DNA from: a phage
DNA length: 64,000 nt
Sequence record: PZ476263.1
Strand: one strand, 5' to 3'
In this document: positions 19,920 through 51,047 of the stretch, piece after piece
How positions within the stretch are numbered: the first letter of the stretch is position 1
Layout: each line of letters begins with the position of its first letter
Translations under genes and position numbers: made by a program
The notes under the pieces: generated by a model
What the model was told of the DNA's origin: nothing
The model's database searches: none
The model's input: only the letters and a program-made list of their open reading frames with translations

Positions 19920-20429
19920 TTAAGGATTTACCCAATAGAAGGGCTTATCCAATCCTAGTTTTCCCTGCTTATCCCAAACGAAATAGGCATAAGCTGCACC
20001 ATCTGTTTTACCGTTATCGGTAAACGATGGACGCTTTGAAAGAGTGATCAAGTGATCCACCGGATACTTTTTCCAAAACTCAACTCGCTTTGTACTCTCA
20101 AGAAAACCTAAACGAAGTAACATGATAATCACATCAGCATCTTCATGTGCTTTCTCTACAAACTCCTGAGCCAAACAGTAAGGAGGGTTCGTAATAATGC
20201 AATCTACACGATTGTATTTTGTAGAAAGGTAATCAACACCTTCACGAATCTCTCCCCACGCAGAACCGATAGGTAATTCATTGTAGAATCTTCCAGATGC
20301 TCGGCAAGGTTCCAGATATGTCCAGTCATTTCTAATCGGTACGATATCTAAAAGGCAATCAACTGCCCACTCCGGAGTTTCATAAAGATCATATGCATTT
20401 CGTTCTGCTTTCGGCTTCAACGCTGCCAT
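19920..20429 (-). CDS. DNA N6-adenine methyltransferase, small gamma-type (169 aa)
   Basis: Motif I-like LEPCRASGRF lies upstream of motif IV IITNPPY. Confidence 0.7.
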   Translation of the reverse strand: MAALKPKAERNAYDLYETPEWAVDCLLDIVPIRNDWTYLEPCRASGRFYNELPIGSAWGEIREGVDYLSTKYNRVDCIITNPPYCLAQEFVEKAHEDADVIIMLLRLGFLESTKRVEFWKKYPVDHLITLSKRPSFTDNGKTDGAAYAYFVWDKQGKLGLDKPFYWVNP

Positions 20430-21280
20430 TACTGATTAACCCCCTTTTTGATTTCAGTGATAAGAGTATCGATAGCTTCTTCCCAATTCAACTCATTCAG
20501 CTGAAGACCAAAACACTCCCCGATCTCATCGATCTCTTCTAAAGTGTACTCATTGAAGTCTTTAGGGTTAATGTCGAAAATGTTGAAGGCTTTTGTATAT
20601 CCGCAGTCCAGTTCAATTGTAAACGAACCTTCGAGAGATCCTTCTTTTTCTTCAGTAACTTCAGGACTCGGTTCGACTGCCGTTTCAACTTGTGACTCCT
20701 CCTGTTCCTCGACTTCAATCTGTTTTTTAATGATCTTGTCTTCTTGTTCAAGACGTGCTTGCATTTCTTCATGATCGAAATAGATTTCACCAGACCGTTC
20801 AAACAGCTCGGCAATTTCTTCAGGTGTCATGATGTTTTCATACATCGGCAGATATTTCTTTTTAAACAGTTTACGATAAAAATCTGTACGTGTCACCAAA
20901 TGGGCCATATCACCACCAAAACCCAACTGAACGTTGTGGAACATGTAATAAGAACCTGGACGACAGATTCGAACATGCCCTGCTAAGAAAATACCCGTTG
21001 CAGCACTTGCAACTTCACCGATCCCGTGGGTAACCACTGTTGCTTTACTTTCAGAGATGGCTGCGATGTACATGTCTTCTACATTACACAAACCGCCGCA
21101 GGATGTTACATAAAGATTAATAATGTCACCTTCCGGCGCTGTACGGATCAGGTCTACAACTTCGACATGTTGATTTGGTGAATCACCCAACTCAGTTACA
21201 TACACACGCCATTCAGTAGAGGTATGTGGAGTTGCCCAAATGTTACTCTTTTGCGGTAAAGTCATTTCCATCTCAGACAT
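20429..21280 (-). CDS. ClpP/S14-like serine protease with an acidic C-terminal extension (283 aa)
   Basis: INLYVTSCGGLCNVEDMYIAAI...GEVASAATGIFLAG...YMFHNV aligns with the ClpP Ser and His regions. Confidence 0.6.
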   Translation of the reverse strand: MSEMEMTLPQKSNIWATPHTSTEWRVYVTELGDSPNQHVEVVDLIRTAPEGDIINLYVTSCGGLCNVEDMYIAAISESKATVVTHGIGEVASAATGIFLAGHVRICRPGSYYMFHNVQLGFGGDMAHLVTRTDFYRKLFKKKYLPMYENIMTPEEIAELFERSGEIYFDHEEMQARLEQEDKIIKKQIEVEEQEESQVETAVEPSPEVTEEKEGSLEGSFTIELDCGYTKAFNIFDINPKDFNEYTLEEIDEIGECFGLQLNELNWEEAIDTLITEIKKGVNQ

Positions 21281-28945: not shown

Positions 28946-28968
28946 AAAAAACCGCCCCGAAGGGCGGT
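28946..28968 (-). terminator. Rho-independent terminator accgccc-cgaa-gggcggt
   Basis: The same 18-mer occurs at 35100-35117. Flanked by A5 and T runs. Confidence 0.75.
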
Positions 28969-28974
28969 TTATTT

Positions 28975-35095: not shown

Positions 35096-35117
35096 AAAAA
35101 CCGCCCCGAAGGGCGGT
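35096..35117 (-). terminator. Rho-independent terminator accgccc-cgaa-gggcggt
   Basis: Identical to the hairpin at 28951-28968, with a T5 run on the minus strand. Confidence 0.75.
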
Positions 35118-35127
35118 TAAATCATTT

Positions 35128-48122: not shown

Positions 48123-48281
48123 TTATTTATTGTTCTTACGGTCTTTACCAATATCTTGATTGAGGTATCTCACAAGAGAGCAACCCAACCAAATAACGGA
48201 TACCACAAATCCAATCACACATACAGTGTGAAACTCTACAGAGTTCATCCCAAAAGCCACAATGTCGTTAGTACACTCCAT
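48123..48281 (-). CDS. Possible small membrane protein (52 aa)
   Basis: Not in the track. MECTNDIVAFGMNSVEFHTVCVIGFVVSVIWLGCSLVRYLNQDIGKDRKNNK. Confidence 0.4.
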   Translation of the reverse strand: MECTNDIVAFGMNSVEFHTVCVIGFVVSVIWLGCSLVRYLNQDIGKDRKNNK

Positions 48282-48562
48282 CAGATCATCTCCAAAGTTA
48301 TTAATACATTATCCAAATCATCAGCCACAAGCTGAAGCTCAGGTTTCATAGTATCTTCCACACGATGATAAATCAAACCTTTTTCCACATATTGATTCAT
48401 CACTCCGTGATAGTTCCCCAAAATGGTGTACCAGTCACATTCGTAAACAGTCACTACACATACCTTGAGGCCAGCTTTCGCAGAGTGCCAAGCTTCACGC
48501 ATAGCTTGAAGATGACTTAATTCATTTTCTGATAACTTTTTAGATTTATTATTCAATAACAT
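48281..48562 (-). CDS. First leftward gene, hypothetical (93 aa)
   Basis: Track start TTG at 48589 sits only about 9 nt from the -10 element; ATG at 48562 preferred. Confidence 0.5.
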   Translation of the reverse strand: MLLNNKSKKLSENELSHLQAMREAWHSAKAGLKVCVVTVYECDWYTILGNYHGVMNQYVEKGLIYHRVEDTMKPELQLVADDLDNVLITLEMI

Positions 48563-48597
48563 TATAAGTAATTCTCTCTTTCGTTTCAATGATGTGC

Positions 48598-48626
48598 ACT
48601 ATATCTATGTAAAAATCTCATGTCAA
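48598..48626 (-). promoter_or_regulatory. Leftward sigma70 promoter TTGACA-N17-TATAGT
   Basis: -35 at 48621-48626 and -10 at 48598-48603 on the minus strand. Confidence 0.65.
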
Positions 48627-48679
48627 TACTTTTAATTAATAAATTTTAAGATAAAATATAAAAGATCTCTAAAGATCTG

Positions 48680-48708
48680 TTGACTTGATCTATAGATCTA
48701 TGTTAAAT
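48680..48708 (+). promoter_or_regulatory. Rightward promoter TTGACT-N17-TTAAAT with a 12-bp perfect palindrome in the spacer
   Basis: -35 at 48680-48685 and -10 at 48703-48708. Palindrome gatctatagatc at 48687-48698. Confidence 0.45.
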
Positions 48709-48774
48709 ATGTTAAATGTTTATAAAGATCTTGTTTTTTTTTAATGTTTTTATTATTTATTGTTTTAATAATAA

Positions 48775-48824
48775 TTATGAATGAAATGAATAATTATTAT
48801 ATAATTTATGAATGAAATGAATAA
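48775..48824. repeat. Two exact 19-nt direct repeats ttatgaatgaaatgaataa, period 31 nt
   Basis: Copies at 48775-48793 and 48806-48824, flanking ttattatataat. Confidence 0.9.
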
Positions 48825-48908
48825 ATTATAATGTAAAGGGGTTTGGTGAGCGGCGGCGAGCCAGGGAATTCTAATATAGTATTGTATGCCTAAACGGGCA
48901 TAAAGGGT

Positions 48909-48936
48909 TTGACTTGTTAAGAAGCTCGTGTATGAT
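48909..48936 (+). promoter_or_regulatory. Rightward promoter TTGACT-N16-TATGAT
   Basis: -35 at 48909-48914 and -10 at 48931-48936, about 30 nt upstream of the AGGAGG RBS of 48967. Confidence 0.55.
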
Positions 48937-48966
48937 GGGTAACGAAGACCAGAAGGAGGTGAAGTT

Positions 48967-49353
48967 ATGTTTGATGTAAACACCTCTGTTGGGAAGAAAT
49001 CATTTGAAGATGATACATTCACCATGTTGCCTCTCCGGTGGGTTGTTGAACTCTCTGGGGAGGATTTGAAAAGGATGATACTTTTGAGGTGGAGGTTTTC
49101 ATTCTTTGCAGAGTTTGCTTCCCGACAGGGTGAACCTGTGGCTATGTGTTTTTATGAATCTCAGGTTGCGTTGTGTGAGTTGTTCCAGATGTCCAGTACA
49201 AGTCAAGCTAAGGTAAGCGCATTCCTTAAGAAGATGGAAGCTGGGGGTTACATAAGTATACAAAGAGAGAAGGTTATCATTAACGGAAAGTCGAAACCTC
49301 GGCACTATATCGTTATCAATGACCCAATCCTTAAAGAAAAGTATAACTACTGA
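48967..49353 (+). CDS. Putative winged-helix DNA-binding regulator, first rightward gene (128 aa)
   Basis: ESQVALCELFQMSSTSQAKVSAFLKKMEAGGYISIQRE is wHTH-like. RBS AGGAGGTG. Confidence 0.45.
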   Translation: MFDVNTSVGKKSFEDDTFTMLPLRWVVELSGEDLKRMILLRWRFSFFAEFASRQGEPVAMCFYESQVALCELFQMSSTSQAKVSAFLKKMEAGGYISIQREKVIINGKSKPRHYIVINDPILKEKYNY

Positions 49354-50964: not shown

Positions 50965-51047
50965 GCGCGGGTGTATCTCAACGGTCTTCTAAACCGTCGT
51001 TAATCGAGTAATTGGAGTATGAAGGTTCGAGTCCTTCCTCCCGCGCT
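50965..51047 (+). tRNA. Atypical tRNA-like element, possibly tRNA-Arg(TCT) or a pseudo-tRNA
   Basis: Canonical features: acceptor pairing gcgcggg/cccgcgc, T-arm gaagg-ttcgagt-ccttc, anticodon arm acggt-cttctaa-accgt. Atypical features: only 9 nt where the D-arm should be, a 23-nt variable region, 2 extra nt between the T-stem and acceptor, and no encoded CCA. Confidence 0.35.

Follow-up and report, generated by a model that had tools for sequence, protein, structure and literature searches.

A conserved, origin-like control region between the divergent early promoters of an rV5-like phage

The lambda origin, the origins of iteron plasmids, P1 oriR and Escherichia coli oriC are the described systems with which the present locus can be compared. 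The C-terminal domain of lambda O recruits P and DnaB, and Rep dimers repress their own promoter by binding an inverted repeat within it. RepA_N proteins have a second domain at the C-terminus, which is host-specific, and the iterons that they bind lie within the gene encoding them. According to Abeles, Brendler and Austin, the oriented 7-bp GATC repeats of P1 oriR reportedly must be methylated, and the order of its elements is said to be GATC repeats, a G+C-rich stretch, RepA sites and repA. The origin designs of T4 and T7 provide a precedent for initiation from an R-loop. [quoted passage not shown] The unwinding elements of iteron plasmids contain short repeats, and ATP-DnaA boxes have been defined inside the oriC unwinding element (PMC4980987).

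The phage analysed in this study is rV5-like (Vequintavirinae). Phages of this type find wide use as candidates for therapy and biocontrol. No origin mapping for rV5-like phages was found in the literature after the rV5 genome paper. In the Vequintavirus Bas54, a gene-free region of approximately 2 kb does not tolerate transposon insertions (bioRxiv 10.1101/2025.11.20.689424) and is a competing candidate for the origin. That region appears not to be the present locus, and the rV5 divergent junctions examined are short; the equivalent of a long non-coding stretch (LTH01 126.5–128.2 kb) lies just outside the DNA investigated here. A 64-kb stretch of phage DNA (the window) was analysed, and its gap of approximately 400 bp between two oppositely transcribed gene blocks looks most like a conserved, origin-like control region between early promoters. 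The features of the region are listed in Table 1. A candidate of approximately 350 bp with a named protein and an 18-bp site would provide a testable origin candidate for a phage group in which no origin has been mapped.

Table 1. Features of the divergent region and its flanking genes (positions in the window)
Feature	Position	Strand	Remarks
First gene of the leftward arm, 93 aa	48281..48562	-	phrog_12865 match, 1.9e-46
Leftward sigma-70-type promoter, TTGACA-17-TATAGT	48598..48626	-	Scan score 11/12; inferred start ~48591
AAGATCT-type site cluster	48655..48739	.	AGATCT at 48663, 48673, 48694 and 48726; GATC at 48687
First rightward promoter candidate, TTGACT-17-TTAAAT, palindrome GATCTATAGATC in spacer	48680..48708	+	Weak, lineage-specific
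Tandem ATGTTAAAT duplication	48700..48717	+	Copies at 48700 and 48709
Candidate DNA-unwinding element, 9% GC	48735..48835	.	Least stable 100 bp of 64 kb
19-mer TTATGAATGAAATGAATAA, copy 1	48775..48793	+	~99% conserved
19-mer TTATGAATGAAATGAATAA, copy 2, exact	48806..48824	+	31 nt downstream of copy 1; ~99% conserved
GC-rich element GGGGTTTGGTGAGCGGCGGCGAGCCAGGG, GAG..CGAGC motif	48838..48869	.	Sharp boundary of AT-rich tract
37-nt conserved block TCTAATATAGTATTGTATGCCTAAACGGGCATAAAGG	48870..48906	.	Imperfect palindrome TATGCC-N6-GGCATA at 48885-48902
Rightward sigma-70-type promoter, TTGACT-16-TATGAT, for the winged-helix gene	48909..48936	+	Score 10/12; inferred start ~48943
Winged-helix protein, 128 aa, phrog_8453	48967..49353	+	AGGAGG at 48955-48960 upstream

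The elements named in the original prediction, which had been made from the sequence alone, were all located where it had placed them, and its central claim of a divergent control region held, with the outward promoters at 48598-48626 (-) and 48909-48936 (+) kept across genera. The gap itself is more likely 404 bp than the 377 bp first proposed: relatives start the left gene, an annotated 282-nt CDS, at the ATG equivalent to 48562, and upstream of this position sequence conservation falls steeply in the comparison with relatives. The same architecture was found in at least 17 Vequintavirinae loci despite sequence divergence, including the genera Certrevirus, Mydovirus, Seunavirus, Henunavirus and Avunavirus. 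Identity in four relatives was approximately 99% in the repeat block and 98% over 48871-48914, against 82–92% in the flanking genes. A small gene on the minus-strand ORF 48765-49025 was rejected; the ORF is found only in the window's group and consists mostly of translated AT-rich repeats. Its counterpart in UPEC06 carries a CDS annotation.

The right arm runs through tRNA genes to the terminase large subunit, which is found approximately 4.7 kb downstream of the region in relatives, and a pac site, or another terminase or recombination site, might accordingly be sought upstream of this late arm. The DNA of the related phage phiTE shows terminal redundancy and circular permutation (PMC3475682), as is usual when headful packaging starts at a pac site. 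Such sites normally lie in or beside the small-terminase gene, however, and the region bears no resemblance to known terminase-binding repeats; directly downstream of it in most genera are NAD-salvage genes, not packaging genes, and the initiator-type winged-helix gene and the extreme AT-richness would be left unexplained. We therefore regard a packaging site as extremely improbable. Direct repeats common to phiTE had also suggested a link to the pseudo-ToxI repeats (36-nt, ToxI-like) of that phage. This link was rejected because the phiTE escape locus is a different one, approximately 7 kb away and between other genes; the phiTE homologue of the region lies at approximately 99.3–99.5 kb, between phiTE_191 and phiTE_192.

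Both hexamers of the leftward promoter are kept in four close relatives and in CR9, CR8, F1M1E and L026, so that the prediction of this promoter is well supported by its score and by conservation out to Certrevirus. Certrevirus phages carry two GATC within its spacer. Two rightward promoters had been claimed, and only the downstream one stands: its -35, TTGAC(A/T), occurs in nearly all related loci, and L027 has a different spacer sequence but the same two hexamers, still 16 nt apart. The pattern of divergent sigma-70 promoters, namely, 16–18 bp spacing, conserved hexamers and variable spacers, was thus found at 48598-48626 and 48909-48936 and was absent at 48680-48708. The latter candidate has a poor -10 that lacks the key A at position 2, was not listed by the promoter scan, and is not conserved, its TTGACT being absent from the closest relatives. 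The TATAAT-like core noted between the 19-mers also fails as a promoter; no -35 with at least 4/6 matches was found in the promoter scan for the TATAAT cores beside these repeats. KB57-type phages possess a good rightward TTGACA-17-GATAAT back-to-back with the leftward -35.

A property of the region that had been missed in the first reading of the sequence is the thermodynamic instability of the 9%-GC tract at 48735-48835. The tract stands at -96.8 kcal/mol, 5 sd away from the window mean of -129.6 (sd 6.3 kcal/mol). In the 141-kb LTH01 genome, no other 100-bp stretch is as unstable as the homologue of the tract, which leads by a margin of 10 kcal/mol, and the AT-rich tract was the least stable DNA of its locus in all 15 related loci tested (15/15). 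The other two divergent promoter regions of LTH01 (121 and 197 bp) are not exceptionally AT-rich and are not among the ten least stable sites of the genome. As in an origin, the tract adjoins candidate binding sites. It holds a T-rich tract, in which TTATTGTTTT (48757-48766) is conserved, as well as the two 19-mers, which are placed in 31-nt units at 48763-48793 and 48794-48824. Each 19-mer contains two ATGAAT hexamers, 9 bp apart. Exact 19-mer repeats form only two families in the 64 kb, of which this is one; no third copy was found in the window with up to 3 mismatches. The two exact repeats reported earlier are therefore real: they exceed chance and are strongly conserved. The identical A-to-T change is present in both copies in A73, and related 19–20-mers occur in Certrevirus phages, SSBI34, L026, ABPH49 and ChuuTotoro. 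GC skew was rejected as origin evidence. Its sign change at 48.5–49 kb is uninformative because it falls at the gene-orientation switch, and the same conclusion was reached for rV5, where GC and AT skew showed only transcription-direction switches (PMC3606486).

Unstable DNA of this kind would also suit an origin that needs no initiator, of the T4 oriF/oriG or T7 type, in which a transcript from an upstream promoter forms a persistent R-loop in the AT-rich element and primes synthesis while the winged-helix protein regulates transcription only. The KB57-type rightward promoter would transcribe the whole tract, and the weak candidate at 48680-48708 has the same orientation in the window. We consider this design quite unlikely, however: in the group to which the window belongs, the upstream rightward promoter is not conserved, and neither the initiator-type fold of the protein nor the group-specific palindromes, always beside the winged-helix gene, would be explained.

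The cluster of AGATCT and GATC sites upstream of the tract is significant in one respect and not in the other. Four AGATCT in 75 bp, with 28 in total in 64 kb, gave p ~5e-5 under uniform placement, and this part of the original claim stands; the count of five GATC in 75 bp does not exceed expectation (p ~0.2, uniform placement) because GATC is 1.5-fold over-represented phage-wide. The local DNA is only ~14–27% GC. Copies of the AAGATCT type persist in 14 related loci despite indels, and their context is oriented, with A at -1 in 49/58 sites and T at +1 in 30/58 (Fisher p = 3e-4, the lineages not being independent). The extended, oriented motif AAGATC(T) therefore marks these GATC sites as more than bare Dam sites. 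In the whole LTH01 genome, the densest cluster of GATC and AGATCT is the homologous site. Elements resembling oriC 13-mers are located at the cluster edges and point outward, namely, GATCTTTTATATT at 48655 (-) and GATCTTGTTTTTT at 48727 (+), each with at most 1 mismatch. The 13-mer consensus GATCTnTTnTTTT has these two matches with at most 1 mismatch, on opposite strands, and one more with 2 mismatches. The phage encodes an NPPY DNA methyltransferase (19926-20435, minus strand), whose homologue in a relative is annotated as N6-adenine methyltransferase; the original prediction had raised methylation-sensitive control of the region as a possibility.

Two further elements within the cluster are weak. 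The 12-bp palindrome at 48687-48698, which had been proposed as an operator, is absent from A5-4 and A73, and perfect palindromes of this length are no rarer than chance would give (8 in the 64-kb window against ~20 in shuffles); that role is not supported. The tandem duplication is present as described; it is not conserved, sits in a 20–30-nt insertion relative to the relatives and is probably a slippage product.

Between the AT-rich tract and the winged-helix gene, two conserved elements were identified that had not been listed before, the GC-rich element and the 37-nt block. GC content is 47.5% over 48836-48915 against 9.6% immediately upstream. Certrevirus phages, SSBI34, ABPH49 and L026 have related GC-rich elements in the corresponding position, and one also lies beside the rV5 AT-rich tract. 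The palindrome of the 37-nt block is positioned 6 bp upstream of the -35 of the winged-helix gene and is unique in the window. A second copy of the block, 36/37 identical, is located approximately 72 kb away in 6/6 close relatives; it is flipped relative to local genes and is not beside unstable DNA, and its neighbours in LTH01 gave no functional clue. Pattern scans for the palindrome block in viral and metagenome collections returned only chance matches in unrelated coding DNA.

Other genera have group-specific palindromes at the same position. Mydovirus, Seunavirus and Henunavirus carry TATTCC/GGAATA, with two upstream sites and a third in the 5' UTR that directly precedes the ribosome-binding site, and Avunavirus carries two copies of TGTCCCC/GGGGACA. 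The start of the recognition helix also differs between the palindrome groups (TSQA, KSQP and NSRT). Palindrome sequence thus appears to track the winged-helix protein across groups, and the palindrome at 48885-48902 is, as judged from sequence, the best candidate site of this protein. Its location beside the -35 would fit repression and activation equally well. The window group has one palindrome beside the AT-rich tract, compared with two to five initiator sites in classical origins; the counts elsewhere are two plus one (Mydovirus, Seunavirus and Henunavirus), two (Av-05) and four (rV5).

The high conservation of 48833-48906 and its 7-bp hairpin could alternatively reflect a structured RNA, such as a leader, a small RNA or a nut-like antitermination site, in which the hairpin AUGCCUAAACGGGCAU is functional. 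A TATAAT lies just upstream at 48827-48832, and the second copy in relatives retains the hairpin, preceded by a good stem, AAACCCC..GGGGTTT. That TATAAT has no usable -35, however, and the second copy is inverted relative to local genes, and therefore both copies cannot be sense RNA elements. All three Hena1 palindromes share an uncompensated left-arm change (TATACC against GGAATA), which also speaks against base pairing in RNA. A structured RNA was rejected on the absence of an Rfam match up to E = 5 and on folding no better than shuffles (z = -0.5 for RNA, -0.2 for DNA), and we judge it very unlikely.

The product of 48967-49353 had been described as winged-helix-like, and the AlphaFold2 model (pLDDT 92) agrees. 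Among its named matches in a viral structure library, replication initiators predominate. Two longer relatives, P0040 (E 2.7e-7) and P0042 (E 1.6e-6), were recovered when 1.84 billion proteins were searched with a profile. P0040 scores above the threshold of Pfam DUF6945, P0042 reaches 27.6 against the cut-off of 28 and, for HTH_36, 23.6 against 25, and both also match PHROGs 428, 270 and 8102, all annotated 'replication initiation protein'. The 128-aa protein itself passes no curated family threshold and matches neither the RepA_N nor the DnaD model of Pfam; one relative annotates its homologue as a transcriptional regulator. The modelled fold and the remote homology point to a predicted initiator of the DnaD/RepA_N-like type. 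If so, phrog_8453, which now has no assigned function, would gain the annotation 'origin-binding protein'.

An analogous module was found in rV5, a member of the same subfamily that has no homologue of the 128-aa protein. The rV5 protein gp075 is annotated 'replication initiation protein', falls just below the thresholds of DUF6945 (27.2 against 28) and HTH_36 (24.5 against 25) and matches PHROGs 8102 and 428; it is, like the 128-aa protein, a small winged-helix protein of the DUF6945/HTH_36 neighbourhood. Downstream of its gene follow four palindromes of the TGTCCGT-N3-ACGGACA type, an AT-rich tract and then a GC-rich element. The tract is the least stable of its 7-kb locus and carries AAAGATCT and TAGATCC. 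The two modules share palindromes with TGT..CC arms, a least stable AT-rich tract with AAGATCT-type sites and the GC-rich element. They differ in that the four rV5 palindromes lie 3' of the initiator-like gene, away from divergent promoters, and in that the 19-mer repeats are absent from rV5. Direct homology between the two proteins was rejected (BLASTP E 7.6; hhalign probability 6%), and they are linked only through intermediate sequences.

AT-rich DNA with operators would also be expected if the region held nothing but divergent promoters under an autoregulated repressor. The main rival to an origin is accordingly a transcriptional switch, in which the winged-helix protein acts at the palindrome as an autoregulated repressor or activator without a role in replication, the AT-rich tract serves as an UP-element or curved DNA, and the GATC sites make the promoters Dam-sensitive. 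Both outward promoters are real by conservation, the palindrome is close to the -35, the palindromes of Mydovirus, Seunavirus and Henunavirus bracket the promoter in an operator-like manner, and the regulator annotation in one relative and the two GATC of the Certrevirus spacer agree with this view. However, the two other divergent promoter regions of LTH01 are short and not exceptionally AT-rich, and the rV5 module is placed downstream of an initiator-like gene; in structural and remote-sequence comparisons, replication initiators give the best matches, and a 70-nt block at 99% identity exceeds the usual constraint on UP-elements. A switch alone is possible, but we consider it rather unlikely.

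The original prediction had left the choice between a switch and an origin open. Of the two, the origin has gained comparative support from the least stable DNA, the GATC/AGATCT cluster, the initiator-type neighbour and the rV5 module. From the anatomy, conservation and instability of the region, together with the fold and remote homology of the protein, we infer protein binding, DNA unwinding and replication initiation here, and we hold with moderate confidence that an origin consisting of an initiator and an unwinding element is embedded between the divergent early promoters. The winged-helix protein, made early, would bind the palindrome as a dimer, thereby autoregulating its own promoter, and the same binding would nucleate opening of the adjoining AT-rich element. 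Transcription through or beside this element may aid opening, and the phage primase-helicase would load onto the opened DNA. The AAGATCT array may be read by a factor common to these phages, namely, host Dam/SeqA, ATP-DnaA or a conserved phage protein. No exact DnaA box (TTWTNCACA) was found in 48500-49000, only two matches with 1 mismatch, and no exact IHF site was present in the region.

A broader and rather improbable proposal is that Vequintavirinae possess an exchangeable replicon module, in which a single-domain initiator is paired with a lineage-specific palindrome and a host-read AAGATCT/19-mer element, and the distant 37-nt copy sets the timing. A minimal DnaD/RepA_N-like winged-helix initiator would recognise the palindrome, with host Dam/SeqA or ATP-DnaA as the reader of the oriented AAGATCT heptamers and AT-rich 19-mers; a virulent phage would therefore borrow the opening or timing machinery of host oriC. 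Pairing of the distant copy with the one at the origin, through handcuffing or titration, may set the time of initiation. Should host Dam, SeqA or DnaA prove to read the AAGATCT array, this would be an unusual coupling of the origin of a virulent phage to host initiation control.

Comparison with known systems places the locus as follows. With E. coli oriC it shares (A)GATCT motifs at short intervals that lead into T-rich sequence; to the oriC 13-mers GATCTATTTATTT, GATCTGTTCTATT and GATCTCTTATTAG correspond GATCTGTTGACTT and GATCTTGTTTTTT in the window. The likeness is at the motif level only, as homology of the GATC cluster to oriC was rejected (no blastn match in 5,426 E. coli genomes), and the window differs in having two 13-mer sites (at most 1 mismatch) on opposite strands and in lacking flanking DnaA boxes. 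Staphylococcal RepA_N (PDB 4pta) and the N-terminal domains of DnaD form another point of reference, from whose Pfam models the window protein stands apart.

In lambda, initiator-bound palindromes with 6–7-bp arms and an A-rich spacer lie beside an AT-rich unwinding tract (PMC7466680). Here and in the relatives, likewise, one to three such palindromes adjoin the least stable DNA, with a promoter on either side. The lambda origin differs in being located inside the O gene with four iterons, whereas the sites here are upstream of the gene, with one in the window, and the phage protein is a single domain of 128 aa. To our knowledge, the lambda AT-rich tract has no AAGATCT array. Sequence homology to lambda O was not detectable; only the distant P0043 gave a sub-threshold Phage_rep_O match.

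The iteron plasmids (P1 oriR RepA, F, RK2 and pPS10) differ from the locus in their DnaA boxes and in arrays of at least three direct iterons, neither of which is found here; moreover, no homologue of the 128-aa protein was found in 72,556 plasmids, and the present host of the module is a virulent 140-kb phage and not a copy-controlled plasmid. In both, a winged-helix Rep-type gene adjoins its established or candidate binding sites. The order given for P1 oriR recurs here, from the AAGATCT array through the AT tract and the GC-rich element to the palindrome and the gene. The present layout matches that known from lambda ori and from iteron plasmids.

The intergenic region between the two divergent gene arms (48590-48966) stands about an even chance, judged from its sequence and conservation, of being a replication origin of the initiator-plus-unwinding-element type that lies between early promoters. 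The window derives from a myovirus of the subfamily Vequintavirinae, and its nearest database relatives are six E. coli phages, namely, UPEC06, LTH01, A5-4, A7_1, A73 and W70 (approximately 82% identity over 48231-49343). This divergent junction recurs in 74 phage records, including members of Certrevirus, Mydovirus, Seunavirus, Henunavirus and Avunavirus, and homologues of the 128-aa winged-helix gene (48967-49353, plus strand) flank it on the right. A common order was observed in all genera: the leftward promoter, AAGATCT-type sites, a T-rich tract with the conserved TTATTGTTTT, direct repeats, a TAGTATTGT-type stretch with a palindrome, a TTGACA −35 hexamer and the winged-helix gene. The window's group, Certrevirus, SSBI34, ABPH49 and one further related locus (L026) also carry a GC-rich element between the direct repeats and the TAGTATTGT-type stretch.

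Features of the candidate origin region, its flanking arms and related loci
Feature	Position	Description
Leftward arm		93-aa gene, then DNA ligase and nucleotide-metabolism genes
Rightward arm		128-aa gene, small genes, five tRNAs, then terminase and structural genes
Unwinding-element candidate	48735-48835	T-rich tract and both 19-mers; 9% GC
GC-rich element	48838-48869	Abrupt end of AT-rich tract; before 37-nt block
Imperfect palindrome TATGCC-N6-GGCATA	48885-48902	Within 37-nt block, 6 bp upstream of −35; unique in window
Second copy of 37-nt block	LTH01 4530-4610	Same in A5-4, A7_1, A73, UPEC06 and W70
Four palindromes of TGTCCGT-N3-ACGGACA type	rV5 record 64.9-65.3 kb (locus 1431-1808, minus strand)	Directly downstream of gp075

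Two further observations concern the arms. An Rfam tRNA model matched 50967-51045 (plus strand), immediately 5′ of tRNA-Met, with 35.8 bits against a gathering score of 29. ARAGORN made no tRNA call there; the site may hold a sixth tRNA of degenerate or unusual form. In the leftward arm, three consecutive RCC1-like repeat protein genes (3923-7208, minus strand; Pfam WD40_RLD and RCC1 matches) look like a paralogous array.

Every element listed in the original prediction was found in its place, and its observations and interpretation were each upheld in part. The leftward promoter (TTGACA-17-TATAGT) is present as described, scores 11/12 and is conserved to other genera. Two rightward promoters had been proposed. 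The second (TTGACT-16-TATGAT) was retained and is conserved in the classic way: in a relative with 89% protein identity, the two hexamers and their 16-nt spacing persist around a changed spacer sequence, and TTGACA is kept at this position in nearly all related loci. The first is weak and not conserved; its −10 hexamer (TTAAAT) lacks the key A at position 2, the promoter scan did not report it and its −35 is missing from the closest relatives. In the KB57-type phages (KB57, Ro1 and KNP2), the −35 hexamers stand back-to-back (TGTCAAcacTTGACA), thereby giving a rightward TTGACA-17-GATAAT from which predicted transcription would cover the whole AT-rich region. This upstream promoter fits an initiator-independent R-loop origin, a reading that we regard as improbable.

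The candidate unwinding element lies 5 sd from the mean and is less stable than any other 100 bp in the 64 kb. Its homologue is likewise the least stable 100 bp of the complete 141-kb LTH01 genome, by a margin of 10 kcal/mol, and the other two divergent promoter regions of LTH01 fall outside its ten least stable sites. The instability minimum lay inside the same intergenic region in 15/15 related loci tested. The exact 19-nt direct repeats (48775-48793 and 48806-48824) were borne out, and the window contains just one other exact 19-mer repeat family. Identity in four relatives reached 99% over the repeat block (48763-48832) and 98% over 48871-48914, compared with 82-92% in the coding flanks and only 53% in the promoter spacer and 5′ UTR. 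Phage A73 carries an identical A-to-T change in both 19-mer copies, so the copies are kept alike. The 19-mer is common to groups whose winged-helix proteins are only 32-55% identical; this wide spread favours a shared factor, or a structural role within the unwinding element, for the 19-mer and leaves the palindrome as the stronger candidate for the binding site of the protein. The tandem duplication ATGTTAAAT is present as predicted and carries little weight, lying in a lineage-specific insertion. The only other exact repeat of at least 19 nt in the window is the 23-nt AAAAACCGCCCCGAAGGGCGGTT (28947-28969 and 35096-35118), which looks like a reused bidirectional intrinsic terminator because its GC-rich hairpin is flanked by A runs and T runs. 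An 86-aa minus-strand ORF (48765-49025) overlaps both the repeats and the first part of the winged-helix gene, and UPEC06 has a 54-aa counterpart with a CDS annotation (QUL77247.1; locus 6510-6674, minus strand); the ORF is absent from other genera, consists largely of translated AT-rich repeats and is probably a spurious call.

The AGATCT cluster was confirmed, with 4 of the 28 sites in 64 kb falling within 75 bp (p about 5e-5). Five GATC sites in 75 bp are no surprise (p about 0.2 under uniform placement), because GATC is 1.5-fold over-represented phage-wide. Among 58 GATC sites in 14 loci, A precedes in 49 and T follows in only 30 (Fisher p = 3e-4, the lineages not being independent); the motif is therefore AAGATC(T) and not a bare Dam site. 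In the LTH01 genome, GATC (6 in 80 bp) and AGATCT (4 in 80 bp; 63 genome-wide) are both most densely clustered at the homologous site. The AAGATCT array resembles the unwinding element of oriC (sequence verified) at the motif level only; blastn gave no match of the array to oriC, and the region contains no DnaA boxes. Certrevirus phages CR9, CR8 and F1M1E place two GATC sites within the 17-bp spacer of the leftward promoter. Elsewhere in the window, a 170-aa ORF with an NPPY motif (19926-20435, minus strand) matches phrog_799 'DNA methyltransferase' at 4e-67 and has no Pfam match; its LTH01 homologue is annotated as a DNA N-6-adenine methyltransferase. CTAG is strongly avoided in the window (0.23).

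The perfect 12-bp palindrome singled out earlier did not stand as a special element: the window has 8 such palindromes versus about 20 in shuffles, so they are not rare, and A5-4 and A73 lack this one. The imperfect palindrome lies in the second conserved island, the 37-nt block (48870-48906). Its arms are TATGCC in the window's group, TATTCC in Mydovirus, Seunavirus and Henunavirus and TGTCCCC in Avunavirus, and the start of the recognition helix differs in step (TSQA, KSQP and NSRT, respectively). The region has a single palindrome in the window's group, two upstream copies and one in the 5′ UTR in the TATTCC groups and two copies in Avunavirus; Certrevirus palindromes are poorer. A purely transcriptional switch would fit the palindrome position and, in some genera, the operator-like way in which palindromes bracket the promoter; this reading is possible but less likely than an origin. 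All six relatives hold a second copy of the block (36/37 identical) about 72 kb away, outside the range of the window. This copy comes straight after a minus-strand gene's stop codon, with a hairpin (AAACCCC..GGGGTTT) ahead of it, and a minus-strand TTGACA promoter is about 120 bp away. It is inverted with respect to the neighbouring genes and may act in titration or pairing or, on the other strand, as a terminator. This inversion argues against a structured RNA, as do the lack of an Rfam match, folding statistics no better than chance and uncompensated arm changes in Hena1, thereby making that reading very unlikely. A pac site has little support and is the most improbable of all. GC skew was uninformative for the origin question, and Bas54 has another gene-free region that does not tolerate transposons (bioRxiv 10.1101/2025.11.20.689424).

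The AlphaFold2 model of the 128-aa protein, built from 24 homologues, had a pLDDT of 92 and a pTM of 0.84. Its structure matches included ORC2 winged-helix domains (up to 8.2), Crp and LexA-type regulators (about 7.3) and the primosome proteins DnaB (6.7) and DnaD (6.3), and named matches in a viral structure library were mostly replication initiators. This small family comprises 24 clusters in 5.8 billion proteins, none with a functional name, and no plasmid members were found. A profile search of 1.84 billion representatives reached two longer relatives; P0040 is above the Pfam DUF6945 threshold, and P0042 is just under it and sub-threshold for HTH_36. Both match three PHROGs named 'replication initiation protein' (428, 270 and 8102) roughly as well as the window's own family. 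On account of these structure and PHROG matches, the modelled protein is classed as a winged helix of initiator type, a statement about class and not function.

Phage rV5 is without this protein. Its gp075 ('replication initiation protein') falls narrowly under the DUF6945 and HTH_36 thresholds and matches PHROGs 8102 and 428; direct comparison with the window protein gave no significant similarity. The palindromes following gp075, a lambda-ori-like array absent from the record annotation, are succeeded by the least stable AT-rich tract of the 7-kb locus, with AAAGATCT and TAGATCC, and then by a GC-rich element (hairpin). This module does not lie at a divergent promoter junction, and the parts list is therefore not merely a by-product of back-to-back promoters. 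Replicon-module exchange occurs in lambdoid phages, and such exchange looks to have taken place between these phages.

The region presents a concrete, testable candidate for the origin still unmapped in this subfamily. In the proposed mechanism, the winged-helix protein would be made early and bind the palindrome, thereby autoregulating the promoter of its own gene, and the bound protein would aid opening of the adjacent AT-rich element. The order of parts is the same as in P1 oriR, where GATC heptamers, a G+C-rich stretch, initiator sites and the rep gene follow one another. The mechanism also fits established features of lambda ori and iteron plasmids, in which winged-helix DNA-binding initiators act beside an unwinding element that is AT-rich and bears 13-mer-like repeats, lambda unwinding needs no more than two binding sites and transcription activates the origin (PMC7466680, PMC4980987). 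The region is best filed as a candidate initiator-type origin and control region.
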